A stretch of DNA of 64,000 bases. It comes from an uncultured Pseudomonadales bacterium (GTDB lineage Bacteria > Patescibacteriota > Microgenomatia > UBA1400 > PJMF01). The translations under genes were made by a program, and so were the position numbers. This document shows positions 11,444-63,635 of the stretch, piece by piece (positions within the stretch are counted from its first letter, which is position 1; every line of letters starts with the position of its first letter). The DNA lies in NCBI GenBank assembly GCA_964443885.1, contig CAYUES010000001.1:4949-68948 (forward strand). Direction: 5' to 3'. Under the pieces are notes generated by a model. It was not told where the DNA came from, ran no database searches, and saw only the letters and a program-made list of their open reading frames with translations.

Positions 11444-11616
11444 TAAGACTTCTCAAGGGGTGACTGATCACTATTGATACTAATTGATAATATTAGATAC
11501 ATTAAATAAGTAGCTAGAATTGTGTTGATATACCAATACAAATTTTTTTTATTCAAAATTAGCAGTGTTTGTCAATCACTGCTAACTCGAGTAAACTGCA
11601 AATAATAATTAAAATA

Positions 11617-12273
11617 ATGCCTAATGCTCAACAAAAAAACTACTGTCGCCTCTACCTGGTTCGCCATGGTGAGAGTGAAGGTAATGTGTTGGGGGTCATT
11701 CAAGGGCATGCAGACTTCCCTCTTACTGAGCGTGGTAAGCAACAAGCAGCCCAATTGGCAAGTGATTTAGAAGGTGTCGAGTTTGCGGCTGTTTTTGCCT
11801 CAGATTTAGTGCGAGCAAGCCAAACAGCGGCGGTTGTGGCCAGTAATCGCAAGCTGGCGGTCACTACAACTGCGTTACTACGTGAGCGTAGCTTCGGAAA
11901 GTATGAAAAGGAGCTTAGCGTTGAGTCCCAACGAGAGCTTCGAGAGCTCTTACAGCAACATGAAGCAGTCGCCACCAAAGAGCTTTTTCACAAAAAATTG
12001 GGCTCAGATATTGAATCTGACGAGGAAGTGGTCGGTCGATTTATCAACTTTTTGCGGGAAGTAGCGGTGGCCTACGCTGCTAGCAACATTTTAGTCGTTT
12101 CCCACTCAGGAATGCTCAAAAGTCTCTTAATTCACTTAGGCTATGCTACCTATCAGGAGCTAAAACACGGTAGTATACCTAATGCCTCTTATATCGTTAT
12201 TGAGTCCGATGGCGTCGATTTCTTCATCCAAGAGACAGTTGGGATCATCAAAACGCCTGTGGAAAATATATAG
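11617..12273 (+). CDS. Histidine phosphatase superfamily (phosphoglycerate mutase-like, branch 1) protein
   Basis: LYLVRHGESEGN (RHGE catalytic His motif). Track start 11569 is TTG; ATG at 11617. Confidence 0.75.
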   Translation: MPNAQQKNYCRLYLVRHGESEGNVLGVIQGHADFPLTERGKQQAAQLASDLEGVEFAAVFASDLVRASQTAAVVASNRKLAVTTTALLRERSFGKYEKELSVESQRELRELLQQHEAVATKELFHKKLGSDIESDEEVVGRFINFLREVAVAYAASNILVVSHSGMLKSLLIHLGYATYQELKHGSIPNASYIVIESDGVDFFIQETVGIIKTPVENI

Positions 12274-13238: not shown

Positions 13239-14978
13239 TTAAACCAGTGCGCGCCCAGTCATGGAAGATGGCTTTTCAATCCCCATTGCTTTCAGAATTG
13301 TGGGTGCGACATCAGCTAAAATGCCGGTCGGCAGCATATTGGGACGAGTAAACTGTTTGCCAATCACAAAAAACGGCACTGGATAAGAAGAATGCTCGGT
13401 ATCGACTTCACCAGTTTGGTTATTAATCATCTCTTCGACATTACCGTGATCAGCAGTGATAAAGACCATACCACCTAGTAATAGGACTTGATTAACGATC
13501 TTGCCTACCACCTCGTCTACCACCTCACAGGCTTTAATAGCTGCTTCTAAGTTGCCTGTATGGCCAACCATGTCCCCATTACAGATGTTGGCAATGACGA
13601 TATCAAAGGTATTTGTTTTGAGATACTTGATCATCTCATCAGCAATTTCATAGGCACTCATTTCTGGGGCTTGGTCGTATGACTTGACACCTTTGGAAGG
13701 GATGATCACCCGTTTTTCACCAGGGAACATATCTTCTTTTTGGCCGTTCATGTAGTAAGTAACAAAACGCTCCTTCTCTGTTTCGGTGATGCGAAGCTGG
13801 CGCAAACTATTGTCGGCGAAAACTTTTCCAAGCGGATTTTTAATATTTTGGGGTGGGAAACCAATATCGACAGGGAGTCCATCCTCATAGTTGGTCATCG
13901 TCACAAAGTATAAATTACCAACAATTTTTTGTCTTTGAAAAGTTTGAGAAGTTATATCCTGTTGAATATTTGTCTTCTCATATTTCTCAGTATATGGGTC
14001 AAAAGCAACATGCTTCACACCTTTTTCAAAGTCGGGCATCACAAATGCTCGTGTTAACTCACGGGGGCGGTCGATACGATAGTTGAAGAAAATTGCAGCA
14101 TCATTATCAGCAATACTACGGTGAGTGCCATCACTATTACAGACACAGATGGGCTCGATAAATTCATCGGTGATGCCTTGATCATACTGGGTCTGCATGG
14201 CTTGGATAGGATCAAGAATACATTGACGACCATCTCCCAAAGTTAAGGCATTGTAGGCTTTTTCAATACGCTCCCAGCGTTTATCCCGATCCATCGCGAA
14301 GTATCTGCCCATTAACGTGGCAATTTCTCCGACACCAATACTCTTACAGTGATCAATGAGTTGTTGCACGTAACTAATACCAGAAGTTGGAGGTGAGTCA
14401 CGGCCATCAGTAAATCCGTGGATGTACACTTTGCTTACTTCTTGTTGCTTACAAAAGTTTAATAATGCGTAGAGATGTTCAATGTTTGAATGTACGCCAC
14501 CAGCACCAATTAAACCCATCAAGTGCAGTGTCGAGTTATGCGCTTTAACATGGTTAACCGCATTCAAAAAAGCAGTATTTGAGTAAAACGATCCATCAGC
14601 AATTGCCATATTAATACGTGGTAAATCTTGATAGACAATGTGGCCAGCACCAATATTTAGATGGCCTGTTTCGGTATTGCCATTTTCTGCTTGTGGTAAG
14701 CCAACGGCTTGGCCACTGGCTTCAAGTTGAGTATGGGGGTAAGATAGCCAAAACTTGTTGATGTTTGGGGTTTTTGCTCGTTTAATTGCATTTCCAGGGT
14801 TGTCAGGACCAATTCCCCAGCCATCAAGTACGAGGAGTACTACTGGGCGTACTCCTTTATAACTTCCGGTTCGGCTCATGGAGTTGAAGGCGAGCTCACT
14901 TACAATGGGCTCGAACGAAGTTCTAGGGACTTCGGGAGTAATAGAGTCGACGGGTGTGGTGGTTTGATTACTATCCAT
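13239..14978 (-). CDS. gpmI: 2,3-bisphosphoglycerate-independent phosphoglycerate mutase (iPGM)
   Basis: VVLLVLDGWGIGPDNPGNAI signature and full-length alkaline-phosphatase-fold homology. ATG at 14978 has AGGAAG upstream. Alternative internal ATG at 14879 would give a conventional N-terminus. Confidence 0.9.
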   Translation of the reverse strand: MDSNQTTTPVDSITPEVPRTSFEPIVSELAFNSMSRTGSYKGVRPVVLLVLDGWGIGPDNPGNAIKRAKTPNINKFWLSYPHTQLEASGQAVGLPQAENGNTETGHLNIGAGHIVYQDLPRINMAIADGSFYSNTAFLNAVNHVKAHNSTLHLMGLIGAGGVHSNIEHLYALLNFCKQQEVSKVYIHGFTDGRDSPPTSGISYVQQLIDHCKSIGVGEIATLMGRYFAMDRDKRWERIEKAYNALTLGDGRQCILDPIQAMQTQYDQGITDEFIEPICVCNSDGTHRSIADNDAAIFFNYRIDRPRELTRAFVMPDFEKGVKHVAFDPYTEKYEKTNIQQDITSQTFQRQKIVGNLYFVTMTNYEDGLPVDIGFPPQNIKNPLGKVFADNSLRQLRITETEKERFVTYYMNGQKEDMFPGEKRVIIPSKGVKSYDQAPEMSAYEIADEMIKYLKTNTFDIVIANICNGDMVGHTGNLEAAIKACEVVDEVVGKIVNQVLLLGGMVFITADHGNVEEMINNQTGEVDTEHSSYPVPFFVIGKQFTRPNMLPTGILADVAPTILKAMGIEKPSSMTGRALV

Positions 14979-15035: not shown

Positions 15036-16328
15036 CTATGCAGTTTGGGTTTGTGCAGGTGTTTGCTGTTGATAGTGTTGGGCGATTTCAAAGTTAATCT
15101 GTGCTAGACGATTATACTTTGCGGTGCGTTCACCTCGATTAGTAGGACCAAACTTGGCGTAGTCAGAACCCACCCCCACTGCAAAATCAGCAATGAAGTC
15201 ATCGTTGGTTTCGCCACTCCGGTGTGACATCACGATCTGCCAGTTAGCAGCCTTCGCAACTTTAATCACCTCGATTGTTTCTGTAATCGTACCGACCTGG
15301 TTTGGTTTGACCAGCAGTGTATTACAAAGTTTATTGGCAATGGCATTTTCTAGCTTTGCTTTATTAGTAGCCAGGAAACTATCGCCGACGATCTTGGTAG
15401 TTTCACCAATCTCGGCTGTCACTGCCTTCCACATATTCGTGTCATCTTCCTGGTAGGGGTCTTCTAGGTAGAATACATTGTACATATCGCGCATTTTTTT
15501 ATAGTATGCCAGTAGTTCCTCGCCAGAATACGGTTGTGAACGATCTTTTATCGTATAACGGCCACCTGAATATAACTGTTCAGCCGCGACATCAACACCA
15601 AAGAACAAATCTTGAGTAAAGGTATACGGCGTGGCTTTGATAGTTTCGACCATGATCTCAAAAACGTCACTATTACTATACAGGTTTGGAGTGAAGCCAC
15701 CGACTAGTCCCACCGAGTGAATTGCTCCTTTTAAAATCAACACTTCTTCGAGTTTTTGAAAAATAGTGACAGCCATGTCGAGTGAGCCTTCATAACTCAA
15801 GTGACTAGCAGGAATAACTTGAAACTCTTGGAAGTCTAAGTTATTTGCTCCATGCTCTCCTCCATTTACCACGGTGTAGATACAGGTTGGAATTGTCAGT
15901 GATTGGGTCAGCTGATACTTTTGCATGATGTAGTAGTACAGAGGGACGTTCTGGGAAAGTGCGCCAGCCTTGAGGGTGGCCTGGGAAACAGCGAGGACGG
16001 CGTTTACCCCGAGCTTTGATTTATTTGGTGTGCCATCTAACTGGATTAAAATATTGTCAATTTCTTCTTGATTAGTGGGATCTTTGCCAATAATTTGTGG
16101 CGCAATATAGGTATTAATATAGTTGACGGCCGTCAAGACACCTTTGCCGAGCATGCGGTTGGGATCTTTGTCCCGTAGCTCTAGTGCTTCATACTTTCCA
16201 ATTGAAGTACCAGTGGGAACACTAGTTGCCACAATACCCCCTGTATCAAGCCAAAGTGTGCACTCAATAGTAGGCCAACCTCGAGAGTCGAGGATTTCAC
16301 GCGCGTATATTCCTTGAATGATTGCCAT
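15036..16328 (-). CDS. eno: Enolase (copy 1, in glycolytic operon)
   Basis: MAIIQGIYAREILDSRGWPTIE...SHRSGETNDDFIADFAVG...RGERTAKYNRL. Full-length enolase. Note ETND in place of canonical ETED and RGER in place of RSER. Confidence 0.9.
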   Translation of the reverse strand: MAIIQGIYAREILDSRGWPTIECTLWLDTGGIVATSVPTGTSIGKYEALELRDKDPNRMLGKGVLTAVNYINTYIAPQIIGKDPTNQEEIDNILIQLDGTPNKSKLGVNAVLAVSQATLKAGALSQNVPLYYYIMQKYQLTQSLTIPTCIYTVVNGGEHGANNLDFQEFQVIPASHLSYEGSLDMAVTIFQKLEEVLILKGAIHSVGLVGGFTPNLYSNSDVFEIMVETIKATPYTFTQDLFFGVDVAAEQLYSGGRYTIKDRSQPYSGEELLAYYKKMRDMYNVFYLEDPYQEDDTNMWKAVTAEIGETTKIVGDSFLATNKAKLENAIANKLCNTLLVKPNQVGTITETIEVIKVAKAANWQIVMSHRSGETNDDFIADFAVGVGSDYAKFGPTNRGERTAKYNRLAQINFEIAQHYQQQTPAQTQTA

Positions 16329-16356: not shown

Positions 16357-18207
16357 TTATTGTAAATATGCAAGCTGCTTTTCTTCAATTTCTGAAATTG
16401 TAGTATGAGTAATTTGGGCAGCTGCGGGTTTTACTACTACTCCATGATACCCGAGTTTGACGGCCTGTGCTACTAGGTCGTGTGAGTAATCCTCAAGATG
16501 TAGATTGAGTTGCAAGGGCTGCATCAAGGTTCGCAGCTCTTGCAGCTCCAAGACAGTTTGAGCAAGCTGCTCCAGTAGCTTGGAGACCGCAGTTTGATCC
16601 ATCGTGTAGTGTTGGTAGATTTCAGGATTATCAGGATCGATACCAAGTAGTAAGGCATGCAAACTTTTTGCATTGACTGAAAGTCCCGCCAACTTGTGGG
16701 TGGGGTACGAACGCAGGTTCAAGATATTTTCAGGCGTATTAACTTGCATCCAGATCGAGAAATGAGGATTATTGAAAAGCCCTGCTCGCTCTACTTCACT
16801 AATAATGTACTCAAGTTCATGCGGGGTGCGGACAAACGGCACTAAAAATGCCAGTGAGGACTGCGTTTTATGCAAGGCGGTCTTCAAAACTTCAATCTCA
16901 AACTGCAGTAACTGAGGTTGGCGATTGAGTTGTAGCCCACCTCTGTATCCCAAGTATGGATTGGGCTCGGAAGGTTCGTAGTTTTCACTGTAGCGAAGTT
17001 GACGGAGCTCACTGGAAGTAAAGTTTTGTGAACGGTAGATAACTGGCTTGAGCGGTAACGCTGCTTGATACGTATGAATCGTCTCAACAAGCTCTTTGAG
17101 CAACTGCTGTTTTTGTTTGGACTGAATGACGTGGAGCGGATGAATTCCAAACTTGGCTAGCGTGTACTCACTGCGCAATACCCCAATTCCCTCGACAGCG
17201 GGAAAAAGGTGTGGCAAGTGTTTTTGGGGATTGCCAGTCGAAATCAGTAGCTTTGTCATCGTTTTTTTGAGCGGGGCGGTTTTGAGAGCTTCCTCAAGAT
17301 CTTCGGTAATATCAGTAATAAAGATGCCCTCTTTAGTCAGTTCCCAAGCTACAATTTGCTGCGATAAGCGTTTTTGTTTGATCGCAAAGACAATTTGAGC
17401 AATCGCTTGGACTTGTTCTTCCGTTACTGAACCATGTTTTTGGTACTGTTGCGGGACTGGGAAAGAAATTAATTTGTCAGCTTCGCGACGGTACTGTTTG
17501 GTTTTGGTTGCAATCGTTTGATCAACAATTTGCCAACTGCGCACATCCACCGAAAAAGAGTCACTAGCATCGAGTAGTAACTGTTGGTCAGGACTGCCCC
17601 AGATCGCCTGGATTAAAACCTGACTTTTGGTGGCCTTTTTGGGGTGTGCCGTAAACCCCAATCCAGATACGACCGGCTGATGTTGTGCCTGGATAATAAT
17701 GGGTGTTGGTGCCAGGTGAATTTGACGAAGTTGGTGGTGTTTTTCAACGGCTCTAAAAACCAGTTCTGCCCAGGCTGCTAAAAATGACTCAATCAAGTTA
17801 GCTTCGCCTTGAATGTGCATAAAATCACTGCGATCAAAACCTAAGTAGTGGTTGGCAGGAATAATTGCTACAAAGTGTTCCGAAAAACGACGATGATACT
17901 GTGAAAGTAGCTCTTTTAAAAACCAAGTCGGTAGCTTCTGCTCGGTGAGGGTTTTTGTAATGTGTTTTTTTAACTTTTGCAGCTTGGTAGGATCGAGGTC
18001 ATCAGGACTTTGACTGGACTGTGAAAGAACGCTGAAAAGTTTATTTTCTTGAGCAATACGGTATAACGTTTCTGGTGGGATAAGAAGAGTTTCAGGAAGC
18101 GGAATTCCTTCTGCAAATAACTTGCCAAAGATCACACCCTGTGTTCCGACCTGAGAAGGTCCAAAATGTAAAAATTGTTCCACTGGAATCACCACCGGGC
18201 TAGGCAT
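16357..18207 (-). CDS. PEP-utilizing enzyme-like protein: PPDK/PpsA-type N-terminal ATP-grasp domain plus C-terminal PEP-utilizers TIM-barrel domain, no phosphohistidine domain detected
   Basis: N-terminus VSGLGFTAHPKKATKSQVLIQAIWGSPDQQLL resembles PPDK_N (SGVmFTxxP...wGLGE). C-terminus EGIGVLRSEYTL, NPYLGYRGG resemble PEP-utilizers_C (GIGLxRTEF, NPmLGxRG). No GGxTSHAAI-type central domain found by reading. 616 aa versus about 790-880 for PpsA/PPDK. Confidence 0.6.
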   Translation of the reverse strand: MPSPVVIPVEQFLHFGPSQVGTQGVIFGKLFAEGIPLPETLLIPPETLYRIAQENKLFSVLSQSSQSPDDLDPTKLQKLKKHITKTLTEQKLPTWFLKELLSQYHRRFSEHFVAIIPANHYLGFDRSDFMHIQGEANLIESFLAAWAELVFRAVEKHHQLRQIHLAPTPIIIQAQHQPVVSGLGFTAHPKKATKSQVLIQAIWGSPDQQLLLDASDSFSVDVRSWQIVDQTIATKTKQYRREADKLISFPVPQQYQKHGSVTEEQVQAIAQIVFAIKQKRLSQQIVAWELTKEGIFITDITEDLEEALKTAPLKKTMTKLLISTGNPQKHLPHLFPAVEGIGVLRSEYTLAKFGIHPLHVIQSKQKQQLLKELVETIHTYQAALPLKPVIYRSQNFTSSELRQLRYSENYEPSEPNPYLGYRGGLQLNRQPQLLQFEIEVLKTALHKTQSSLAFLVPFVRTPHELEYIISEVERAGLFNNPHFSIWMQVNTPENILNLRSYPTHKLAGLSVNAKSLHALLLGIDPDNPEIYQHYTMDQTAVSKLLEQLAQTVLELQELRTLMQPLQLNLHLEDYSHDLVAQAVKLGYHGVVVKPAAAQITHTTISEIEEKQLAYLQ

Positions 18208-18299: not shown

Positions 18300-19382
18300 T
18301 TACCCACGCTTCTTGAGCTGATCTTTAAACCAGTCCACCCAAGGAATTGGAGCTGGATCAAGATTATGAATCATGGCTAAATAGAATGACGTATATGCGC
18401 CAAAGACGAGCAGCTCAAAGGCTTGTTCTAGCTTGGTTTTGGTAGTGAGTGTTAGGCTGCGATGTTCGATTTTGTTCTGCTCTAAAACATCAGACGTCAA
18501 GGTGGCGCGTAAGCGATTGCTTTGTAAGTACAACTCTGATTCGATAATAAAGAAGATGATCGCATCATCAAGATTAACTGGAAACTTCAAGCCTTCCATC
18601 AAGTGATGATTAAGCTCTGGGATCACTCGATACTCAGAATACGTCTTTGCGTTTTCATTGAGTTGGTTGGCCAAGACGTGTGCGACTCCCTCGAGGTGTC
18701 CAGCCGCTGTAATCACCGGGATACGAGTTGAGAACTCAAATGCAAGTAACTTAGAAGGATTAACTTCATCGGCAATATCAACACCAGAGAGCAAGTGAGC
18801 TTTCGCAATTGCCTCAAGAACCGCCGAAACTTCTGCGTCAGTGACGTTGAGCAGGCCAGCTTGTGCGAATAACGCAATTTGACCAAAAATTGAGTAGCCC
18901 AGTCCCATCCGTGGTTGGTTGGACGGGTTGTAGGTTGGCTCGAAGACTAAGACGGGGAAGTTGTGCTCTTTGAGTAGTTCTGCAAGTTTTCCACCAGACG
19001 TAATACCAGTTACTTTTGCACCTTTGTTAATAGCATCTTGAGTTGCGGCCAGCGTTTCTTCGGTTGAACCAGAGTAACTTGAAGCGATCACCAACGTATT
19101 TTCATTGACAAACTCTGGCAACGTGTAGTCAGGTACAATTATGACCGGGACTTTGAGCTCGTCTTTAAAAACAGTTTGAATTACATGAGTACCAAGCACT
19201 GAGCCACCCATACCAGCGACCACAACATTAGTTACTTGGCGATACGAGTCGTCGAAGTGCAGTGATTTTGCAACTTCCCAAACTTGTTGCACCTGGCTGT
19301 TCATTTGCTCAATCGAGCCAAGCACATTATGTTTGTCAATTTCAGCAATCTGTTCACGTGAGTCCAACAACTTGTCTGCCAT
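18300..19382 (-). CDS. pgi: Bifunctional phosphoglucose/phosphomannose isomerase (archaeal-type SIS-domain PGI/PMI)
   Basis: Two SIS-like halves (VVAGMGGSVLGTHVI...IASSYSGSTEET) and about 360 aa length typical of the TIGR02128-like PGI/PMI family. Strong SD AAAAGGAG upstream. Confidence 0.75.
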   Translation of the reverse strand: MADKLLDSREQIAEIDKHNVLGSIEQMNSQVQQVWEVAKSLHFDDSYRQVTNVVVAGMGGSVLGTHVIQTVFKDELKVPVIIVPDYTLPEFVNENTLVIASSYSGSTEETLAATQDAINKGAKVTGITSGGKLAELLKEHNFPVLVFEPTYNPSNQPRMGLGYSIFGQIALFAQAGLLNVTDAEVSAVLEAIAKAHLLSGVDIADEVNPSKLLAFEFSTRIPVITAAGHLEGVAHVLANQLNENAKTYSEYRVIPELNHHLMEGLKFPVNLDDAIIFFIIESELYLQSNRLRATLTSDVLEQNKIEHRSLTLTTKTKLEQAFELLVFGAYTSFYLAMIHNLDPAPIPWVDWFKDQLKKRG

Positions 19383-19561: not shown

Positions 19562-20914
19562 TTACTGTCGAATTACTGCTAAAACTTCGTCTCGCTTCTG
19601 CTCCATCATTTCCTTTGAAGTTGCTTCCAAGTTGAGGCGAACTAACGGCTCGGTGTTGGAAGTACGGACATTGAAGTTCCAGTCTGGATAAATCAATGAC
19701 ACTCCATCAACGTGCAAGACTTCTTGAGCTGAAGGGCCATACATTTCTTCGATTCGAGCCAAAACAGCTTTGCCATCGACCCCTTTGGTGTTAATCTCAC
19801 CAGAGATAAAGTACTTTTGTCCGAGTTCGTCGAGCATTTGATCAAGTGTCTGCCCTGTTTTAGTCAAGAGATCCATCAAGAAAAGCATTGGTGCTAACCC
19901 AGAATCACACAAGAAAAAGTCCTTGAAGTAGTAGTGGCCACTGACTTCACCTGCGAAGACCGCGCCTTCATCGAGCATCCGCTTTTTGATAAACGCATGA
20001 CCGACTCGGTTGTAGAGTGGCGTGCCTCCTGCAGCCGTAATAATATCTGGTACCGCGTGTGAAGCACGAATGTCATAGACAATTGGCGCACCTGGATACT
20101 TGATTAAAAAGTACTTGGCTAGAAGTGCTGTCATGAAGTCACCAGACACAAATCTACCCTTGGCATCAATGCAGAAAAACCGATCGCCATCAGGATCACA
20201 CGCAAAACCAAGATCAGCGCCTTCACTAACGACACGCTCCATTAATTCTTTGCGATTTTCTTCGATCAGGGGATCACCACCATGATTGGGGAATGTGCCA
20301 TCTGGTTCAAAGTACATTGGCGTCATCGTGACTTGCGGAATATGTTTGAAGAGTTCCGTTGCTGAAGGGCCGACCATACCGTTGGCGGTATCGATGATAA
20401 CTTTCATTGGCTTGAGTGTTGTCACGTCAACGAGTGAGAGCATTTTCTCGATGAAGCCGTCCATAATGCTCCACTGCTCGACTGTGCCAGGAGTGGCAGC
20501 AGTGGGAGGAAAATCATCATTTTCGATAAGCTGGCGAATATCTTGAATGCCTTCATCACCTGACAACAGGTAGGGAATTTTTTTGACCATCTTGAAGCCG
20601 TTGTACTCAGCCGGGTTATGACTGGCGGTCACCATGATGCCAGGCAGTTCTTTGGTGGCGCATGCGTAGTAGTACATATCAGTTGAAACCATCCCGACAT
20701 CAATCACATTGACTCCGACACTAGTCAGACCAGCAACAACACCGGCATGCAGCTCTGGGCTAGAAATGCGTGCGTCACGTCCGACAATCACAGTTTCAGG
20801 TTTGAGAACTTGCGCAAAGGCTTTACCGATCGCTGGCGCAGTTTCAGCAAAGAGTTGTTTACCAAAGACACCACGGATGTCGTAAGCCTTAAAAATTGAA
20901 GCATCAACTTGCAT
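19562..20914 (-). CDS. Phosphoglucomutase/phosphomannomutase (alpha-D-phosphohexomutase)
   Basis: YDIRGVFGK...GIMVTASHNPAEYNGFK (TASHNP phosphoserine motif). Four-domain length. Confidence 0.9.
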   Translation of the reverse strand: MQVDASIFKAYDIRGVFGKQLFAETAPAIGKAFAQVLKPETVIVGRDARISSPELHAGVVAGLTSVGVNVIDVGMVSTDMYYYACATKELPGIMVTASHNPAEYNGFKMVKKIPYLLSGDEGIQDIRQLIENDDFPPTAATPGTVEQWSIMDGFIEKMLSLVDVTTLKPMKVIIDTANGMVGPSATELFKHIPQVTMTPMYFEPDGTFPNHGGDPLIEENRKELMERVVSEGADLGFACDPDGDRFFCIDAKGRFVSGDFMTALLAKYFLIKYPGAPIVYDIRASHAVPDIITAAGGTPLYNRVGHAFIKKRMLDEGAVFAGEVSGHYYFKDFFLCDSGLAPMLFLMDLLTKTGQTLDQMLDELGQKYFISGEINTKGVDGKAVLARIEEMYGPSAQEVLHVDGVSLIYPDWNFNVRTSNTEPLVRLNLEATSKEMMEQKRDEVLAVIRQ

Positions 20915-29185: not shown

Positions 29186-29653
29186 CTATACTTCAAACGA
29201 CATCTTGGTGTTCACTGACTTAAAACCTTTGCTTTCAAAAAATGAACAAGCGACGCCGTTGTGGTTGAAAACATCAAGTTCAACGTAGGGTATGTTTTGA
29301 TTTTTTGCGCGCGCCTTTACTTCATCAACGAGCTGTGTGCCGATGCCTTTACCTTGAAATTCTTTACTGACAGTAATGTGGCGAATGTACAGCGATTGGT
29401 ACGCAAAGTTTGTAAAGTTTTCATCGTAGGTGCGGACTTCGTAGACCAGATATCCAGTAGCCTGACAGTCTTCTGTTTCGTCAATCAGAATCACGATGTT
29501 ATCGGTATTAAAAAACTCCAAGAATAAGTTTTTGATTTCTTTTTGATTGTACGGTTTGAATTTATCAGGAAAAAGGCGATGATGCAGATCTTGGACATCT
29601 TTATTCAGTTCTGATAAAACAGGAACATCATTGATTGAGGTAGTACGGATCAT
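29186..29653 (-). CDS. GNAT family N-acetyltransferase
   Basis: ITVSKEFQGKGIGTQLV (acetyl-CoA binding Q/RxxGxG/A motif). ATG at 29653 chosen over longer track ORF (29809). Confidence 0.75.
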   Translation of the reverse strand: MIRTTSINDVPVLSELNKDVQDLHHRLFPDKFKPYNQKEIKNLFLEFFNTDNIVILIDETEDCQATGYLVYEVRTYDENFTNFAYQSLYIRHITVSKEFQGKGIGTQLVDEVKARAKNQNIPYVELDVFNHNGVACSFFESKGFKSVNTKMSFEV

Positions 29654-29798
29654 AAAATTTATTATAGCAATATTGTAGTTTAATCTGGTATTTTGGTATA
29701 CCCTGCAGCACGTAGTGCGATCACAATCCTGAGTAAAAGGGTCGAATTCATTTGGGATAGTATGCGTCAAGATAGTTAGCTCTGAGAAGATATAGCTA

Positions 29799-30434
29799 TC
29801 AAAATACAATATTCTTTACTTCGTTGATCATCTTGGCTTTTATCTCTTCCCAACTCACATCTTTGATCATACGTGGCAGAGGCTGTGCTTCTGCATCTTC
29901 AAAATAAACGAGCGATTTTAAAATGTGAGCTTGATTATAATCTACAGCAGAATACTTGGTTTTTGCCTTTTCAAGTAACTCTGGCAAATGATATATACTA
30001 AACAAAAAGAACAAATCCACAAAGTCTTTTTTACTCCCTCTCATGCTGACTGTTTGCAACTTGGTACAGGCAATATCAAGCACAGAACTAAGCTGTATTT
30101 CTTGCCAGTGACCAAGGGGTTCAAGCAATGGGTAGTGATACTCCAAAAACTGCAGTTTGACACCATCAACATAGGTATTTAATGTCCCTGTAGCAAGCTC
30201 AGTGTTGTTAAGTTGTCCTAATCCAGCAACTTCTTTTTCAAGTTGCAGAGGATTAAATTGCTCTGTACAGAAAAAATCCAAATCTTCAGACTCACGATGC
30301 CCTATCTGTAAAGATAGTCCTGTGCCTCCTGACAAATAAAAAGATTTTAGAAACTCAGGCTGTAATTGATGAATTTTTTCAACAAGTTTTGCAGTTTTGC
30401 TGGGTAGTGTTTCGGGGTAAAATGTTGTGCTCAT
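29799..30434 (-). CDS. AbiEii/AbiGii-family nucleotidyltransferase (type IV toxin-antitoxin toxin, DUF1814/PF08843)
   Basis: YLSGGTGLSLQIGHRESEDLDFF matches the AbiEii signature (GGTaLxxxxxHRxSxDlDf). Track start 30452 is TTG; ATG at 30434 overlaps the upstream gene stop as ATGA. Confidence 0.8.
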   Translation of the reverse strand: MSTTFYPETLPSKTAKLVEKIHQLQPEFLKSFYLSGGTGLSLQIGHRESEDLDFFCTEQFNPLQLEKEVAGLGQLNNTELATGTLNTYVDGVKLQFLEYHYPLLEPLGHWQEIQLSSVLDIACTKLQTVSMRGSKKDFVDLFFLFSIYHLPELLEKAKTKYSAVDYNQAHILKSLVYFEDAEAQPLPRMIKDVSWEEIKAKMINEVKNIVF

Positions 30435-30664
30435 GACAGGTAAATCCGCCAAAAATTACTTGATTTAGGTTGTAATTTTAATTGTGGGAGTAAGTTCTGT
30501 AGCTCTACTCTATTGGTCTGCTTAAAAAGCCAGTTTAGTGCTTCAGTATTGCCTTTATCAAGCAGTGTTTGAATGATGTATTTTTTGTGTTTTGACCAAT
30601 CTAGTTCATCTAAATTATCACCCCAAAAATAGGCTTCTAACTGCGTGGGAATCTGTAATTTCAT
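30431..30664 (-). CDS. Small protein translationally coupled to AbiEii toxin gene; candidate antitoxin/partner (not AbiEi-like)
   Basis: 77-aa ORF from ATG 30664 (TATAAT 7 nt upstream). Stop TGA overlaps AbiEii ATG (ATGA at 30431-30434). No wHTH/AbiEi signature seen. Confidence 0.5.
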   Translation of the reverse strand: MKLQIPTQLEAYFWGDNLDELDWSKHKKYIIQTLLDKGNTEALNWLFKQTNRVELQNLLPQLKLQPKSSNFWRIYLS

Positions 30665-30772
30665 TAAGTGTATTATACTAAATTTGGTACAGATTTTCTT
30701 GTTCAAAAGTAATTTTGAGTTCGATACTAGCAGATATAGCTATCAAGTTATAAATAAACTACAATTTCACTC

Positions 30773-33319: not shown

Positions 33320-33403
33320 GCCGAAATGGCGGAACTGGTAGACGCGCACGCTTCAGGAGCGTGTGGGAGCAATCCCATGGAGGTTCGAGTCCTCTTTTCG
33401 GCA
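33320..33403 (+). tRNA. tRNA-Leu (anticodon CAG), type II
   Basis: Acceptor GCCGAAA/TTTCGGC, anticodon stem CACGC/GCGTG with loop TTCAGGA, long variable arm. Confidence 0.85.
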
Positions 33404-33428
33404 CAGGCTGGTATAATACAGTCGTAAC

Positions 33429-33510
33429 GCCCGGGTGGTGAAATGGTATACACGTACGCTTGAGGTGCGTATGCCGCAAGGTGTGGAGGTTCAACTCCTC
33501 TCCCGGGCAC
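33429..33510 (+). tRNA. tRNA-Leu (anticodon GAG), type II
   Basis: Acceptor GCCCGGG/CCCGGGC, anticodon stem TACGC/GCGTA with loop TTGAGGT, long variable arm. Confidence 0.85.
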
Positions 33511-33557
33511 AAGTAGTACACTGCGGAAAAATAATTCGCAGTTATAATCACTATATT

Positions 33558-33631
33558 GGACGCTTAGCTCAGTTGGTTAGAGCACTGCGTTTACATCGCA
33601 GGTGTCGGGGGTTCGAGTCCCTCAGCGTCCA
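33558..33631 (+). tRNA. tRNA-Val (anticodon TAC)
   Basis: Acceptor GGACGCT/AGCGTCC, D-arm GCTCAGTTGGTTAGAGC, anticodon stem CTGCG/CGCAG with loop TTTACAT. Confidence 0.85.
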
Positions 33632-33670
33632 CAAGTATTTGAAAATACGCTACAATACTGTAGTATTCGA

Positions 33671-33743
33671 GCCAAGCTAGCCAAGTCGGTCACGGCGCAT
33701 GTCTGAAAAACATGAGATTGAGGTTCGATTCCTCAGCTTGGCA
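33671..33743 (+). tRNA. tRNA-Phe (anticodon GAA)
   Basis: Acceptor GCCAAGC/GCTTGGC, anticodon stem CATGT/ACATG with loop CTGAAAA, T-loop TTCGATT. Confidence 0.8.
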
Positions 33744-33775
33744 CATTCAATATAGGTATCCACTACTTGAATGTG

Positions 33776-36643
33776 TTACTTACCCCAAGAAAAAAGATTC
33801 TTAAAAAACTTCATTAGTTTACCAAGTAGTGAAAGCTCCTCGCCATCTGCCGATGTCTCATCGTCTGCAGTTGTTTGAGTATCGGTAGTATCTGATTTTT
33901 TGTTGGTTGTAGATTTGCTATTGGTAGAAGTACGCTCTGTAAGCGTTTCATCATCAGCATCACTACTTTCATCCAGCTCTTCACCAAAACCATCATCTGC
34001 AGAATTTGACTCAGCATACGAAACCAATTGATTGGTGTGCGAAGTCAGTGTACTGCTCCACTCGCCTGGAGCACAGCCATTTCCAGCCCGAATCGCAAAT
34101 CTATAGGTAGCTTGAGGCTCCAAACTTTTGACAGTGAATTCTTGCACACCGTTGCTAGCAGCAGTAAACTCGACTGCATGCTCACCCAGATTTTCTTTGC
34201 CGTATTCAAGTAAGTAGTGGTCGGCATTGTTGTTGACAGGCACAAAGTAAATCGTTGCTTCACTGCCCTTTCGCTCGATAGAAAAAAGGGTCGGCGCGAC
34301 AGCTGGTTTGAAAAACGAGCAGACTGCCTCGGTAATTTTTTGCGAAACTGAAGAACTCGAGCTTTGGGAAGACGCAGCTGGCGTGGCTGTCGGAGTTGGG
34401 GTTGGTGTTGGAGTTGGGCAGTCCCCTTCTGTGGTAACTGTTCTCACCGACGACTCAGCAGTCGCCTCATAGGCATCGGTGCTGACAACTTGATAGTGAT
34501 ACTCTGTACAAGCAGTGAGGCCGCTCAGTTCTACCGTGTGCGAGGTGACGCGTGGAGCGGTATCAGTTTCAGCAGTGGCCGTGCCAAGCGAGCTGGTTAA
34601 GCCGTAGTTTACCTGGCTAGAAGCAGCGCGGGAAGTTGTCCAGGTAAGTTCTACAGTTGTACCCGTTACGGTAGCGTTTATTTCACTCAGTACTGGATCT
34701 TCACCAGTGGAAAGTTGGGTAGTTGCGGTATTAGAAAGTACAGTGTTATCGCGTGCTAGGAGATAACTATAAATTTCTTCGGGTGAAGCCACCCAAATTA
34801 CGTTGGTACCATCTGCTCCATATTCATCATTTGCGTGTTGGGCCACTTGTAAAAGTGCCGCTTCTTTATTGCCATGAGTTAAGGTGTTGTACCAAAAATT
34901 GCGGGTAGTTGTACTATTGGTATTCATCCAGTCAATAATTGCAATTGAGTCGGCTGGATCAACTTCAATGCCGAGGTCACGGCCGATTTTAACGGTATCT
35001 GAGTCTACTGCATCAGCAGATTGTCCAGCTGCCGAGTAGTTGGCAGCACCAGAATTAATAATCATCAAGCCATTGCCCCCAGACTGATTGAACTGGACTT
35101 CAGTCGTGGTATTGGTGCGGTGACTTACAATGAATGGGTCGTAGTCTGCCAAGAAACAAGGTGCTGCAAAACCAATCAGTTTGTATGTGGGTACGCTTGA
35201 TTCAGCAATAATACTTTTTAATCTATTGTACCCATCTAAAATATCAGTTTCCCAGTCGTCTCCCGGTGGGGCGCAGTTTGAGTACCAACCATGATTTCCA
35301 ATCGCCCAACCCATAGCCAGCAACTCCAGAATCCGTGGCTTATCAGCGATCCAGTCTTCTTGGCGAGTATCATTGACTAACTCAGCGATAATATTAACGC
35401 CCCCTGTCCAGCCAAAGCTAGTCATCAGCGCGATTTGTTCATCTAAATAGACGTTGTCATCCATGCTATGACTCCATGCAAATTTTTTGCCGTCTTTGAG
35501 CGGTGCTTTGCCAACAGCAAAACTACCCACATTTTGTGGATTCTTCACCAAGACACGGGCTGTATCGCCGCTGCCAGCAAAATAAACAATGCCCGTGGCA
35601 ATATTATGTGTATATGAAGTGGCAACTCCATCGATGTAGACATTTACTAAGGTTGAACTACCAATAGTGACTTGATAGGTGACGGTTCGCCAATAAATAT
35701 CGGGAATGCCAGAATCATCAATGTCAAAGTCAATCGCGTAGTAAATCGGATTTTCCACGACATTAACGGTGACGGTACCAGTATCGGTGTTAGCGGCAGG
35801 ATCACTAAGGGTGTAGGTAAAGGTGTCACTGCCCACATAGTCAGCTGTTGGAGTGTAGAGAATTTGATTATCTACAACTTGGGCTGTTCCATGGGCGGGC
35901 GTACCTACCCCAGTAACTGTCAGGGCGCCAGACTCAGGATCTGAGTCATTTAGCAAGACATTAAAAGTGGTGGCTGCATTCGTTTCGAAAGAATCATCTA
36001 CAGCGACCGGTGGTAAGTTAATCTCTTCGTAGGTAATAACTAAAGTGGGCTTGGGTTCACCACCACTATAGTCACCAGTGATGAACTGTCGATTGGAAAA
36101 AACTTCTGATCCATTGTCTCCAATCCAGATCATAATGCTGTCGTTGTAGTCCCAATCTGGGTGATCAACGAGTGCTTGAACTAACGCAGTCAGATCTGGT
36201 GAAACGGCAGTTTCGCCAAAGCCTTGATTAGGAACAGAGTTCCAGTCTACGGTAGTCAGAACGAGGTCGCTGGCTCGGGATACAAATTCAGCATAGTTTG
36301 AAGGAGCGGTAACGTCTGGAGAGTCTACCGCTCCAATCGTAACACTCACGGAGTTGCCTCCACTGCCAAAGTACGTTAACTCAAGGCTGGCATTAGAAAT
36401 AGTGGCACCAGGAGCAATTTCTAAACCTGAAAAAAGCAGTAAGTGTTCAACATCTGGACCACCAAAGACCATCAAACTGTCGTCACTATCAAACGTATCA
36501 GGCGCTTCAGCCCAAGTATCGGCAGTACCGGTGCCAACGATGATCTCTGTCGTCGTTTGTGCTTGGACAGTAGAAACAGCAAAATAAGAGAAAAAAATTG
36601 CTAGTAGGAGGTAGCTGAATAATCGGCGCATGACAAAACTCAA
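33776..36643 (-). CDS. Large secreted/surface protein with cadherin-like Ig domain, fibronectin-III-like domain(s), Pro-Thr linker and acidic Ser/Thr-rich C-terminal tail
   Basis: Signal peptide MRRLFSYLLLAIFFSYFAVSTVQA. VAVDDSFETNAATTFNVLLNDSDPESGALTV...DTFTYTLSD (cadherin-like/VCBS pattern). VELTWTTSRAASSQVNYGLTS...CTEYHYQVVSTD (Fn3-like). PTPTPTPTPTATP linker. D/E/S/T-rich tail ending in amphipathic LLGKLMKFFKNLFSWGK. Confidence 0.6.
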   Translation of the reverse strand: MSFVMRRLFSYLLLAIFFSYFAVSTVQAQTTTEIIVGTGTADTWAEAPDTFDSDDSLMVFGGPDVEHLLLFSGLEIAPGATISNASLELTYFGSGGNSVSVTIGAVDSPDVTAPSNYAEFVSRASDLVLTTVDWNSVPNQGFGETAVSPDLTALVQALVDHPDWDYNDSIMIWIGDNGSEVFSNRQFITGDYSGGEPKPTLVITYEEINLPPVAVDDSFETNAATTFNVLLNDSDPESGALTVTGVGTPAHGTAQVVDNQILYTPTADYVGSDTFTYTLSDPAANTDTGTVTVNVVENPIYYAIDFDIDDSGIPDIYWRTVTYQVTIGSSTLVNVYIDGVATSYTHNIATGIVYFAGSGDTARVLVKNPQNVGSFAVGKAPLKDGKKFAWSHSMDDNVYLDEQIALMTSFGWTGGVNIIAELVNDTRQEDWIADKPRILELLAMGWAIGNHGWYSNCAPPGDDWETDILDGYNRLKSIIAESSVPTYKLIGFAAPCFLADYDPFIVSHRTNTTTEVQFNQSGGNGLMIINSGAANYSAAGQSADAVDSDTVKIGRDLGIEVDPADSIAIIDWMNTNSTTTRNFWYNTLTHGNKEAALLQVAQHANDEYGADGTNVIWVASPEEIYSYLLARDNTVLSNTATTQLSTGEDPVLSEINATVTGTTVELTWTTSRAASSQVNYGLTSSLGTATAETDTAPRVTSHTVELSGLTACTEYHYQVVSTDAYEATAESSVRTVTTEGDCPTPTPTPTPTATPAASSQSSSSSVSQKITEAVCSFFKPAVAPTLFSIERKGSEATIYFVPVNNNADHYLLEYGKENLGEHAVEFTAASNGVQEFTVKSLEPQATYRFAIRAGNGCAPGEWSSTLTSHTNQLVSYAESNSADDGFGEELDESSDADDETLTERTSTNSKSTTNKKSDTTDTQTTADDETSADGEELSLLGKLMKFFKNLFSWGK

Positions 36644-43604: not shown

Positions 43605-45158
43605 TTAGTCGCGCAAATCGCGGTTAATACTCCCAATCAGTTGTGGACCTTGATAAATCATGCCTGTGATAAGTTGAACTAAGTCTGCTCCCAAGGCTAT
43701 TTTTTGGCGCGCGTCTTCGGCAGAGAAAATGCCCCCAGTCCCAATAATCGTAAAGCGATTTTTATAGTGTTTTTTTGTCAAAGCAATCAATCTATTGGAA
43801 CGCTCAAAAGTAGGCTTGCCACTCAAGTTACCCTTGCGTTTTTGCCATTCTTTGGCGTCTTCGGTAGCGACGGCTGGATTAGTTTTGTCTTTTGTGAGGT
43901 TGCCCAAAATCACGCCAGCAGTTTTGTGTTTTGCGATGACCGCGAGCAGTTGCAGGCTTTCTTTTTCTGATTGATCAATCGGCATTTTGACATAGATCGG
44001 CTTGGTGACTTTCAGTTTATCAAGTGCAGTCAGTAGTATTTCCAACCTGTTTGTCGTGGTGAATGGTTCGCCACCAAACGTATTCGGGCAACTAATATTC
44101 AACTCATAGTAAGAATGACCGACTTTTGATTTCTCAAATAATCGAAAACAAGTAATAATGTCGGTAATCTGCTCTTTGTCAGTTTCGTAGGCAGCATTGG
44201 TGCTCCCGATACTAATTCCAACCGGGATTTTGAACTGTAACGGAGTAAGTTTTTTGATAATTTCCTGTGCGCCGATGTTTTTAAGACCTTTATTAACGAG
44301 CAGTGCTTTGGAGTTCGGGAAACGCCCAAGCATTGGCGAAGTATTGCCGTCATAAGAATGCAGTGTCACCGTACCAACGGTGTGCCAACCAAACCCGACC
44401 GAAGGCAGAATTTGTGTTAAGTCGGCGTTGTAGTCAAAGCCCGCTGATAAGCCAACTGGATTAGGAAAAACAATGCCATCACGTTTGGTGGCGAGCGCAG
44501 GGTCATAGTACGCAAAGAGTGCGCTATTGATGGCTTGAGTTATCGAGAAGTTGCCAAAAAATGCACCCAACTTTGTCATCGTATCGTGAACGAGCTCAGG
44601 ATCGAAAAGAAAGAAAATTGGCTTTAAAACAGTGGTGTACAAAAAACTAATCACCGAGTGAAAGACAGTCTTGGTGCTGTATCCAGATTTTTGGCTGTAG
44701 AGCGCAACGTAGGTTTGGGTAGTGATAAATAACAGCGTGCTGACAGCCGCAGAAATTAAACAGTACGAACACCACGCTTTAATCACCACTCCCATTAGAA
44801 ATACTAAGTAAAATGAAAAAAGTAAGCCACCGATCGTAATTAGTTGCAGTAAATCCAGTGGTGAGGTTTTACGAATGAAGGCAGACTTGGAAGTTTTGAA
44901 AAAAGAACTTTTTTTGAAGTCTAGTTCCAGAAAATGCATAACAGCGAGCACAAAAACAGTTAGGTAGTAACCCAAACCGAGTGCTGAAAGTGGAAGCGGT
45001 CCAATCTGGGCGTACGGACTACTTAAAACAGTTTCGCATTGAAAACCTGGCGTACACGGTGGAATCACCCCCGCAACCTTTTCATAGGTTAAGTAACTGG
45101 CATCGGCAATGCCAATCAAAGATAAAACGATCAGCAGCAAAGACATGAAAACATTCAT
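43605..45158 (-). CDS. pyrD: Fusion protein: N-terminal VKOR (vitamin K epoxide reductase) membrane domain (aa 1 to about 160; nt 44679..45158) plus class-2 dihydroorotate dehydrogenase (PyrD; nt 43605..44678)
   Basis: VKOR half: LTYEKVAGVIPPCTPGFQCETVLSSPYAQIGPLPLSALGLGYY (loop Cys pair plus TVLSSPYA motif) and AWCSYCLISA (TM CxxC). DHODH half: FLFDPELVHDTM (class-2 N-terminal helices, cf. E. coli LFQLDPERAHEFT), FPNPVGLSAGFD, GFGWHTVGTVT, NISCPNT, GNLSGKP, IIGTGGIFS, GADLVQLITG. Single uninterrupted ORF from ATG 45158. Confidence 0.8.
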   Translation of the reverse strand: MNVFMSLLLIVLSLIGIADASYLTYEKVAGVIPPCTPGFQCETVLSSPYAQIGPLPLSALGLGYYLTVFVLAVMHFLELDFKKSSFFKTSKSAFIRKTSPLDLLQLITIGGLLFSFYLVFLMGVVIKAWCSYCLISAAVSTLLFITTQTYVALYSQKSGYSTKTVFHSVISFLYTTVLKPIFFLFDPELVHDTMTKLGAFFGNFSITQAINSALFAYYDPALATKRDGIVFPNPVGLSAGFDYNADLTQILPSVGFGWHTVGTVTLHSYDGNTSPMLGRFPNSKALLVNKGLKNIGAQEIIKKLTPLQFKIPVGISIGSTNAAYETDKEQITDIITCFRLFEKSKVGHSYYELNISCPNTFGGEPFTTTNRLEILLTALDKLKVTKPIYVKMPIDQSEKESLQLLAVIAKHKTAGVILGNLTKDKTNPAVATEDAKEWQKRKGNLSGKPTFERSNRLIALTKKHYKNRFTIIGTGGIFSAEDARQKIALGADLVQLITGMIYQGPQLIGSINRDLRD

Positions 45159-62363: not shown

Positions 62364-63635
62364 TTACCCATGTTTCTGGATGTGTAACTCACGCTCTATC
62401 TCGAGTAGACGGTTGTATTTAGCTACACGCTCGCCTCTTGTTGGCCCCACCTTTATGTAAATGGCACCAACTGCTACGGCTAGATCAACCAGTGCAGTAT
62501 CGTTTGTTTCCCCACCACCACGATGTGACGGAATCGTACTCATGCCATGTTGCTTCGCCAGCATGCAGGTCTCGATAGTTTCAGATACACTACCGATTTG
62601 ATTGAGCTTAATTAGGATACTCGAGATTGCTTGGAGTTCAATAGCTTTCTGTAGTCTCTCCACACTCGTAACGGTGACGTCATCACCAATCAACGGGACG
62701 TGGTGCGCATCGCACATCTGTTTGCAGACTTGCCAGCTTGCCCAGTCATCTTCATGCAGCGGATCTTCTAAAGTCACAATTGGATATTTTTCTAATAATG
62801 TCTGGAAGTACTCAATCACTTCAGTTGGTGAAAGTGTTCGGTTTTCCAAAGCAAAGTGATACATGCCATCTTTGTAAAACTCATTGGCAGCAGCATCAAT
62901 CGAGAAACCCACGTCTACACCAGCCTGATACCCTGCTCTTTCAATTGCCTGGAGCATATATGAAAATGGTGCTTCGTTGGTAGTAATACCGCTTGGTGCA
63001 AAAGCGCCTTCATTCCCAACATTGGTAGATAAGTTATTTTCTTGCAAGATCTTAGCCAACGCATGGTAACATTCCAACATAATTCGTACACTCTCTGTAC
63101 GGTAACCTTGCTTTAATACACTAAAGCAGTATTCTTGCAGATCAGTTGAGTGGTCAGCATGTTTCCCGCCTTCAATTACGACAGCCATTGGTTGGGGTAG
63201 CACTTCAAATGTTGCGCCGGTCTGAAAGGTGTCACGCAGATGCAGGTACAAGGGTTTTTTCTGTGAGTTGGCGGCGGCACGGGCGGTGGCGACCGAGACA
63301 GCTAAGATGGCATTGCCACCCAAGCGTGATTTTTGCGGTGTCCCATCCAACTCAATCATTGTTTTATCGATTAGTTTCTGATTATTGGCATCCAAACCTA
63401 GCAAATGCGGCGCAATTTCTTCGTGGACGTTTCGAATTGCTTGCAGCATGCCTTTGCCGTTGTATCGTGCTTGATCTCCATCTACCAAGACCGATGCCTC
63501 GTGTGAGCCAGCTGAAGCCCCATATGGTACTGATGCGAGGCCAACACTGCCATCTTCAACCGTGACTTTGACTTCAATTGAAGGATACCCTCCCGAAGCA
63601 ATAATTTCGTAACACTGGATAGCGGTAATCTGCAT
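62364..63635 (-). CDS. Enolase (copy 2, divergent paralog)
   Basis: MQITAIQCYEIIASGGYPSIEVKV...SHRGGGETNDTALVDLAVAVGAIYIKVGPTRGERVAKYNRL. Full-length enolase fold. Shares the ETND/RGER variants with copy 1. Confidence 0.8.
   Translation of the reverse strand: MQITAIQCYEIIASGGYPSIEVKVTVEDGSVGLASVPYGASAGSHEASVLVDGDQARYNGKGMLQAIRNVHEEIAPHLLGLDANNQKLIDKTMIELDGTPQKSRLGGNAILAVSVATARAAANSQKKPLYLHLRDTFQTGATFEVLPQPMAVVIEGGKHADHSTDLQEYCFSVLKQGYRTESVRIMLECYHALAKILQENNLSTNVGNEGAFAPSGITTNEAPFSYMLQAIERAGYQAGVDVGFSIDAAANEFYKDGMYHFALENRTLSPTEVIEYFQTLLEKYPIVTLEDPLHEDDWASWQVCKQMCDAHHVPLIGDDVTVTSVERLQKAIELQAISSILIKLNQIGSVSETIETCMLAKQHGMSTIPSHRGGGETNDTALVDLAVAVGAIYIKVGPTRGERVAKYNRLLEIERELHIQKHG

Follow-up and report, generated by a model that had tools for sequence, protein, structure and literature searches.

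A phosphoenolpyruvate synthase-like protein without a phosphohistidine domain and its enolase-like neighbor in Microgenomates-type Patescibacteria: a candidate pseudo-dikinase

The DNA analyzed in this study, referred to below as the window, is a 64-kb stretch of contig CAYUES010000001.1, which is deposited as part of the genome of an uncultured Pseudomonadales bacterium. It contains an open reading frame (ORF), designated X, whose product resembles phosphoenolpyruvate (PEP) synthase, PpsA. X starts with an ATG codon at position 18207 and ends with a stop codon at 16357–16359, and no longer reading is possible in this frame. It is encoded on the minus strand and is co-directional with the genes of the block that flanks it; the order pgm-pgi-X-eno-gpmI given in a first-pass annotation of this DNA is borne out by Pfam, which places all of the neighbors on the same strand (Table 1). 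That annotation described the product as an ATP-grasp domain followed by the C-terminal TIM barrel of the PEP-utilizing enzymes, with no phosphohistidine domain between them. Both domains are detected above their Pfam gathering scores, PPDK_N in residues 19–279 (E 4e-16, 59.6 bits against a gathering score of 27) and PEP-utilizers_C in residues 313–551 (E 2e-17, 63.8 bits against 22.8), and every peptide that had been quoted is present in the translation: VSGLGFTAHP (residues 180–189), AIWGSPDQ (201–208), GIGVLRSEY (340–348), NPYLGYRGG (416–424), and LSVNAKSLHALLLGID (509–524). By homology, and by homology only, X belongs to the PEP-utilizing enzyme superfamily. Its scores for the NCBIfam PEP synthase equivalogs are 166.5 bits against a cut-off of 598 (NF005057) and 138.2 bits against 739.75 (TIGR01418).

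A model of X was built with AlphaFold2 from 31 family members. It has a mean predicted local distance difference test score (pLDDT) of 89 and comprises two well folded domains separated by a disordered stretch at residues 305–311. The predicted template modeling (TM) score of 0.52 suggests that the mutual orientation of the two domains in the model is not fixed. Structure prediction and fold comparison had been proposed at first pass, and the Foldseek matches, with TM scores of 0.75–0.87, agree with the Pfam assignment of both domains. The C-terminal domain corresponds to the PEP-binding TIM barrel of PpsA (TM 0.84 and root-mean-square deviation 2.2 with 9dae; TM 0.87 with 8a8e; deviations ranging from 2.2 to 2.6), and the N-terminal domain has an ATP-grasp fold like those of rifampin phosphotransferase (RPH; 5hv6) and HpeI (9goj), with TM scores of 0.75–0.78. 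In the alignment with solved PpsA, residue 240 of X corresponds to residue 274 of the chain and residue 315 to residue 532, so that about 180 residues are missing, and the linker that joins the two domains of X is about 16 residues long. The C-terminal helix has the sequence EEKQLA as compared with EExKL-M799 in the archaeal 24-mer PpsA, and the Met is absent from X.

The missing region contains the swivel domain, which in PpsA carries the phosphohistidine motif GGxT(S/C)H. No match to the mobile His domain PF00391 was found in X by Pfam, even at E ≤ 1. A hidden Markov model (HMM) of the swivel was built from canonical and intermediate relatives and, as a positive control, it detected every three-domain relative. 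Searched in all six frames, the 64-kb window gave no match to this model (best E 0.08), and only fused copies, with no stand-alone domain, were found in the ±10-kb flanks of about 36 related loci. A Pfam survey of the remaining window ORFs of at least 200 residues found no pyruvate kinase, PPDK, or PF00391 protein. The absence of the central domain reported at first pass is thus supported by the negative Pfam and six-frame searches and by the linker that stands in its place, and the six-frame search also excludes a frameshifted swivel remnant inside X. The possibility that X is a frameshift fragment of a longer pps gene was considered separately and was ruled out because X is colinear over residues 1–616 with dozens of proteins of the same length from independent assemblies.

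The active-site residues were compared in an alignment of 46 swivel-less proteins, 24 three-domain relatives, and five canonical PpsA sequences. In the ATP-grasp domain, four residues that are invariant in the five canonical proteins are replaced in X and are variable among the 46 short homologs: the Lys of the GGK motif (Q23 in X), the Arg of RSS (I116), the Mg-binding Glu of DIEW (A287), and the Mg-binding Gln of QxRP (D299). The SFAGQQ segment of this domain is deleted. In the barrel, the Mg-binding Glu is replaced by N490 (Asn in 38 of the 46 short homologs) and the Arg of VDRD by P525 (Pro in 44). The Asn-Asp pair of GSNDLTQ is replaced by K514 (Lys, Arg, or Thr across the short homologs) and, in place of the Mg-binding Asp, by S515 (Ser or Thr in 42 of 46), in agreement with the first-pass description of the SIGTNDL-like segment as degenerate. 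The CGQ segment, which contains the proton donor, is replaced by N568-L569-H570-L571-E572, and X contains no cysteine at all. The same exchanges are seen directly in the comparison with solved PpsA, in which WAMAEVP corresponds to WMQVNTP of X and FSIGSNDLTQLILGADRD to LSVNAKSLHALLLGIDPD.

Other parts of the barrel are retained. R392, N416, R422, and R460 (in PFVRT) are present in all 46 short homologs and R345 (in GIGVLRSE) in 42, and residues N416-P417-G420-R422-G423 of the NPYLGYRGG loop, together with D524, are invariant or nearly so in the family. The first-pass annotation had singled out the catalytic Arg, Cys, and Glu residues of the barrel as those to be checked; three arginines are kept, and one Arg, the Cys, and the Mg-binding Glu are lost. 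Several residues at or near the altered positions are conserved in the new form, T491 in 46, E493 in 44, N512 in 44, H570 in 37, and E572 in 40 of the 46 proteins; positions 514, 568, and 573 vary within the family. Because the replacement residues are themselves conserved, the barrel of X is remodeled rather than randomized. Further active-site residues of Enzyme I of the phosphotransferase system (PTS), beyond E431, D455, and C502, are numbered R296, R332, R358, N454, and R465, and those of PPDK are R561, R617, E745, N768, D769, and C831. In Enzyme I, substitutions of E431, D455, and C502 strongly impair the enzyme (PMC13598208). Since the swivel, the ATP-grasp ligands, and the Mg ligands, Asn, Arg, and Cys of the barrel are all lost, X lacks the residues needed for the dikinase reaction, pyruvate + ATP ⇌ PEP + AMP + Pi.

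The gene adjoining X on its downstream side, eno1, encodes an enolase paralog in which the motif VGDEGG has become VGLVGG (residues 206–211; window positions 15687–15713); in the alignment with the solved enolase of B. subtilis, VGDEGGFAP corresponds to VGLVGGFTP. In the clade to which the window belongs only this Asp-Glu pair has been lost, and eno1 is 92% conserved and keeps the Mg ligands, K342, and K393. In the clades with three-domain forms of X, eno1 also lacks the Ser loop, His159, an Mg-ligand Asp, and the KxNQIG motif. All 33 enolases that adjoin a degenerate X lack the catalytic Glu, X abutting the enolase gene directly in each of these loci, and the altered motifs are GLVGG, GIVGG, GLDGG, GLNGG, GKVGG, GPLGG, GPIGG, GPTGG, GKAGG, and GSTGG; the 33 enolases share ancestry and do not represent 33 independent events. 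The only locus with an adjacent canonical GDEGG enolase is L033, in which the X-type protein has kept its His. The enolase of locus L036 also has GDEGG, and this gene is non-adjacent and on the opposite strand, with only a partial X-like ORF at the locus. Among the closest database relatives of eno1, 120 of 120 are without the Glu and have kept the Lys and SHRSGET motifs. eno1 is among the best conserved proteins of the block, even in relatives in which its active site has clearly been destroyed, and the persistence of high conservation despite this loss points to a non-catalytic constraint on the protein. Many eno1-type proteins also carry C-terminal tails rich in Pro, Thr, Ala, and Gln, of 15 to about 220 residues (P0199, P0201, P0223, P0248, P0250, and P0264), and the C terminus of the window eno1 (about 15036–15080) is a short low-complexity tail, QHYQQQTPAQTQTA.

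The window contains a second enolase gene, eno2, which carries an SHRGGGET insertion and adjoins genes for EF-P and an EpmA/GenX-like lysyl-tRNA synthetase paralog. The Glu is kept in 120 of 120 of its closest relatives. The X-eno1 block is separated from the eno2-type gene by about 45 kb on each of two contigs, that of the window and a 222-kb contig from JGI. From its residues, eno2 is presumed to be the working enolase of the genome.

Two-domain proteins like X form a large family. In the protein database there are about 30 such proteins of 591–645 residues with identities down to 26%, and at least 46 full-length two-domain homologs of X were collected in all. A profile search of 1.84 billion cluster representatives returned many more; about 90 of the sequences analyzed are swivel-less, and clustering at 50% identity gives about 90 clusters with intact X-type ORFs of about 590–650 residues. 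The genomic context was compared in species-representative genomes, all of the Patescibacteria (Microgenomates) type, at 36 loci. These share a slot in the order YgjP-like protein, holA, PMM/PGM, PGI, X, enolase, iPGM, LexA. X lies directly upstream of the enolase gene in 34 of the 36; the gap between the two has a median of about 9 nt and never contains an insertion, and a search started from eno1 homologs returns the same X-eno1 pair. Several contigs with clear Patescibacteria synteny (L002, L003, L004, L005, and many more) are deposited as Methylococcaceae, Limisphaerales, or "uncultured Pseudomonadales", and these taxonomic labels are probably wrong.

The slot is occupied by two-domain proteins of 596–649 residues and by three-domain proteins of 714–771 residues, which are orthologs because they share this one syntenic position. 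Of the 24 three-domain orthologs, 23 have a hydrophobic residue where the catalytic His would be, GGRTSHAAI being changed to GLSSPMLAK or another sequence of the GLSSPxL type, and the ATP-grasp and barrel motifs are already in the state seen in X. The exception, at locus L033, has kept the His (KRSHAAL) and groups with canonical PpsA. In a neighbor-joining tree without support values, the swivel-less proteins fall into at least three clades, one of which is nested among the three-domain forms, and the linker differs in length between swivel-less clades (33 versus 48–56 residues). This placement and the differing linkers suggest that the swivel was deleted more than once, after the loss of its His. 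The wider profile search revealed a continuum of partly degenerate PpsA-like proteins, for which the states were read from a keep-length alignment and the counts are approximate. It includes proteins with an intact ATP site and His alongside an X-like barrel (P0154 and L033/P0121). A further set, P0132, P0107, P0125, and P0112, is swivel-less with an ATP-grasp domain whose motifs are canonical (GGK, RSSATAEDL..SFAGQQ, DIEW, QTRP) and with a barrel that is canonical in part; its members represent independent swivel losses in proteins for which ATP binding may still be possible.

X evolves faster than its neighbors, with 66% identity to the closest locus as compared with 84–92%. Synonymous divergence (dS) is saturated in every available pair, so that only the bound that nonsynonymous divergence (dN) is much less than dS can be stated. 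The dN of X is 0.15–0.27, 3–5 times that of the neighboring enolase and iPGM, and is similar to the values for holA and the YgjP-like protease. This similarity indicates that X evolves as an ordinary constrained protein and not as a neutral relic. The constraint is unevenly distributed, the mean identity within the X family being 43% in the TIM barrel versus 28% in the N-terminal domain, as compared with nearly equal values, 45% versus 43%, in canonical PpsA. With its catalytic residues gone and its sequence under purifying selection, X has the attributes of a pseudoenzyme.

The block in which X and eno1 lie was labeled a glycolytic operon at first pass, a label that is partly apt. Upstream of X are a PMM/PGM and a PGI/PMI-type isomerase, and in relatives these are interleaved with genes of a GDP-mannose type, inserted between PMM and PGI and between PGI and X (L038, 4632–6700; L011, 4485–7571 and 8616–9848; L014, 8817–9947; L007, 7618–8841). 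The inserted genes encode a GDP-mannose-pyrophosphorylase-like nucleoside triphosphate transferase, a HAD phosphatase, a Nudix protein, and a type-I phosphomannose-isomerase-like protein, the last two being assigned by motif reading only. In its upstream half the block thus resembles a set of genes for hexose-phosphate and GDP-mannose metabolism more than one for glycolysis proper. To describe the neighbors as PEP-producing and PEP-consuming enzymes is too simple, since the adjacent enolase lacks the Glu and the canonical enolase is eno2. No intergenic terminator was found within the block in our scan, and promoter-like matches were at chance level. Co-transcription of the block is plausible from these results. 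The iPGM encoded by gpmI is extended at its N terminus by about 40 residues rich in Pro and Thr, and its phospho-accepting Ser is replaced by Thr (GNSEVGH to GNTETGH, window positions 14661–14681), as it is in 18 of 18 related loci. A histidine phosphatase gene (dPGM-like, His_Phos_1; 11569–12273, plus strand) lies just past lexA, with conserved synteny in several relatives, so that the region has both iPGM and a dPGM-family protein.

Table 1. Positions of X, its domains, the genes of its block, and the second enolase gene in the window
Feature	Positions	Strand	Description
X, whole ORF	16357..18207	minus	616 aa, PpsA-derived, two domains
X, residues 1–302	17302..18207	minus	ATP-grasp (PPDK_N) fold; nucleotide and Mg ligands unconserved
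X, residues 303–316	17260..17301	minus	short linker in place of a swivel of about 130–150 residues; pLDDT < 50 at 305–311
X, residues 317–593	16429..17259	minus	PEP-utilizers_C TIM barrel, remodeled
X, residues 594–616	16360..16428	minus	C-terminal helix, aligns with the oligomerization helix of archaeal 24-mer PpsA
eno1 (enolase paralog)	15036..16328	minus	28 nt downstream of X; catalytic acid Glu lost
gpmI (iPGM)	13239..14978	minus	Pfam; downstream of eno1
SIS-type PGI (bact-PGI_C)	18300..19382	minus	Pfam; upstream of X, 92-nt gap
Phosphohexomutase (PGM/PMM, four PGM_PMM domains)	19562..20914	minus	Pfam; first gene of the sugar-phosphate block
eno2 (second enolase)	62364..63635	minus	all catalytic residues present (VGNEGAFAP)

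Other features of the window are set apart from this block. A 517-residue ORF (43605–45158, minus strand) has an N-terminal VKOR (vitamin K epoxide reductase family) domain and a dihydroorotate dehydrogenase domain, an unusual fusion for such an organism, and a 955-residue protein with bacterial Ig, cadherin-like, and fibronectin-III domains by Pfam (33776–36643, minus strand) is possibly a surface protein. An AbiEii-type toxin gene is located at 29186–30706 (minus strand) with small neighboring ORFs. Four tRNA genes (Leu, Leu, Val, and Phe) form a cluster at 33320–33744 on the plus strand, and tRNAs were the only hits in an Rfam scan of the window.

The explanation that we consider best, and to which we give about an even chance of being correct, is that X is the Patescibacteria ortholog of PEP synthase, still encoded at the ancestral pps locus beside eno, that has become a pseudo-dikinase with a ligand-binding or scaffolding role together with eno1. 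X would no longer turn over substrate. It is predicted to bind a phospho-carboxylate, such as PEP, pyruvate, or 2-phosphoglycerate (2-PG), without phosphotransfer, and it would probably remain oligomeric, because its C-terminal helix aligns with the oligomerization helix of the 24-mer PpsA, the Fe-binding Met799 being absent. X and eno1 would be produced together and would serve, without catalysis, as a sensor or scaffold within the sugar-phosphate block, and true enolase chemistry would be carried out by eno2. Among the three options offered by the first-pass annotation, "pseudo-enzyme or regulator" fits these features best. A bolder proposal, which we hold tentatively and as somewhat less probable, is that X and eno1 constitute an unrecognized two-protein module of Microgenomates-type Patescibacteria, formed from two ex-glycolytic enzymes, that senses metabolites of the PEP/2-PG type, acts as a scaffold, or catalyzes a new metal-independent reaction of a phospho-carboxylate.

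Several results weigh against a non-catalytic role shared by X and eno1. Mirror-tree analysis gave no sign of specific co-evolution of the pair (partial r 0.22 as compared with 0.63 for X and holA), and a search for Rosetta-stone fusions of the two found none, the long eno1 homologs having Pro/Thr-rich tails and the long X-like proteins being free of enolase. The synteny of the whole region of about 20 kb is conserved, so that adjacency alone is weak functional evidence. Conserved residues of X are not significantly enriched at the C-terminal ends of the barrel strands (p = 0.49, with a crude definition of these ends). Because the eno1 of the window clade has kept all of its Mg ligands and both catalytic lysines, it may yet be enzymatically active, and the conserved replacement residues in X are equally compatible with a new catalytic site and with a binding site.

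The last two points lead to the possibility that X is a neofunctionalized enzyme whose remodeled barrel catalyzes a new metal-independent phospho-carboxylate reaction with N490/T491/E493, N512, K/R514, S/T515, H570/E572, and the three arginines. Such an enzyme might take part in a two-step path with eno1, which may be able to enolize a 2-phospho-acid but not to protonate a 3-OH leaving group. The fixation of new residues at former catalytic positions, a barrel conserved as well as that of canonical PpsA, and the loss from the window-clade eno1 of nothing more than the Asp-Glu pair in an otherwise highly conserved protein are all in keeping with this idea, and P0154 and L033/P0121 suggest that the barrel changed while phosphotransfer was still running. 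However, positions 514, 568, and 573 vary within the family, no known reaction fits, and the ATP-grasp domain would be left without a role. The pair has also been kept in sister clades whose eno1 has lost the Mg ligands and the Lys motif, which makes a single conserved two-enzyme chemistry unlikely. We regard neofunctionalization as the main rival explanation, less likely than the pseudo-dikinase. It is improbable that X and eno1 are relics in slow decay, drifting without function after pps and eno had been replaced (for example, by eno2 and pyruvate kinase) and retained only through chance or polar effects in the operon. In favor of decay, no protein of the block evolves faster than X, the PpsA-like proteins of Patescibacteria show degeneration at many intermediate stages, and the swivel was probably lost several times. 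Against it, streamlined genomes hold intact full-length ORFs with identities as low as 26%, dN falls far short of the saturated dS, the new residues are fixed across the family, and eno1 ranks among the best conserved proteins of its block.

A split dikinase, in which a separate phosphohistidine carrier shuttles between the domains of X as in phenylphosphate synthase, had also been suggested at first pass, and we consider it very improbable. Split PpsA-like systems do exist, the fold matches include HpeI (9goj), an ATP-grasp protein that stands alone, and the search for a carrier covered 64 kb of the genome. Against this, in addition to the loss of the swivel, the ATP-grasp domain has lost its ATP and Mg ligands and the barrel its Mg and Cys residues, the orthologs that retain a swivel lack its His, and no stand-alone swivel was detected in the window or in the flanks of about 36 loci by an HMM that detects every fused copy; a His carrier combined with a competent ATP subunit was not found in this search. 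An artifact, in which a frameshift or misassembly would have left X as a piece of an ordinary pps gene, has next to no probability: nothing was found in its favor, and the colinearity of X with independent assemblies and the lack of a six-frame swivel remnant speak against it.

In metabolic reconstructions of the Candidate Phyla Radiation, PEP synthase is assumed to replace a missing pyruvate kinase, which is found in only about one-third of genomes (PMC7304191), and a complete Microgenomates genome is listed with "PEPS" and "enolase" (PMC7143001). Because the pps-like gene of the X clade encodes no His carrier, ATP site, or Mg site and the adjacent enolase has no catalytic Glu, domain-based pipelines will overstate the capacity of this clade for lower glycolysis and gluconeogenesis, and metabolic maps that count X as a working enzyme are probably wrong. 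If X and eno1 do form a module, the "PEPS" and the operon "enolase" of the clade are not what they are annotated to be. No description of a His-less or swivel-less PpsA, or of a Glu-less enolase paralog, in these bacteria was found in the searchable literature. The family provides a graded natural series, from canonical through His-less three-domain to swivel-less proteins, the last state apparently having been reached several times. It thus illustrates how a multi-domain phosphotransfer enzyme can be dismantled while the protein stays under selection, and X and eno1 are a rare instance of two neighboring enzyme genes in each of which key catalytic residues have been lost.

Among known systems, X is closest to PpsA (pyruvate, water dikinase; EC 2.7.9.2), the archaeal-type multimeric forms of which (8a8e and 9dae) share its ATP-grasp and barrel domains; PpsA gives the best hits, with family profile E values of 4e-75 and 4e-74. 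The C-terminal helix of X aligns with the PpsA oligomerization helix, and a canonical-like PpsA occupies the same slot beside eno at locus L033. X differs from PpsA in having no swivel or His, in its unconserved ATP and Mg ligands, in the replacement of the Glu, Asp, Asn, Arg, and Cys of the barrel, and in the lack of an equivalent of Met799. PPDK and PTS Enzyme I belong to the same TIM-barrel superfamily and share with X the Arg of GxGLxRxE, the Arg of xxRxxD, and the NPxLGxRG loop, but they depend on a mobile His domain, on Mg2+ bound by Glu and Asp, and on a Cys proton donor, all of which are missing from X. RPH, phenylphosphate synthase, and HpeI resemble X in the ATP-grasp fold (5hv6 and 9goj); in contrast to X, which has no ATP site and no detectable carrier, RPH and the split systems keep the ATP site and have a His carrier that is fused or separate. 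Like other pseudoenzymes that have arisen from metabolic enzymes (reviewed in PMC10211241), X has lost its catalytic motifs and is conserved under selection. It is unlike typical pseudoenzymes in that three active-site modules have been lost at once and in its pairing with a Glu-less enolase, and as judged from these features X is best described as a PpsA-derived pseudoenzyme whose partner has been altered as well.

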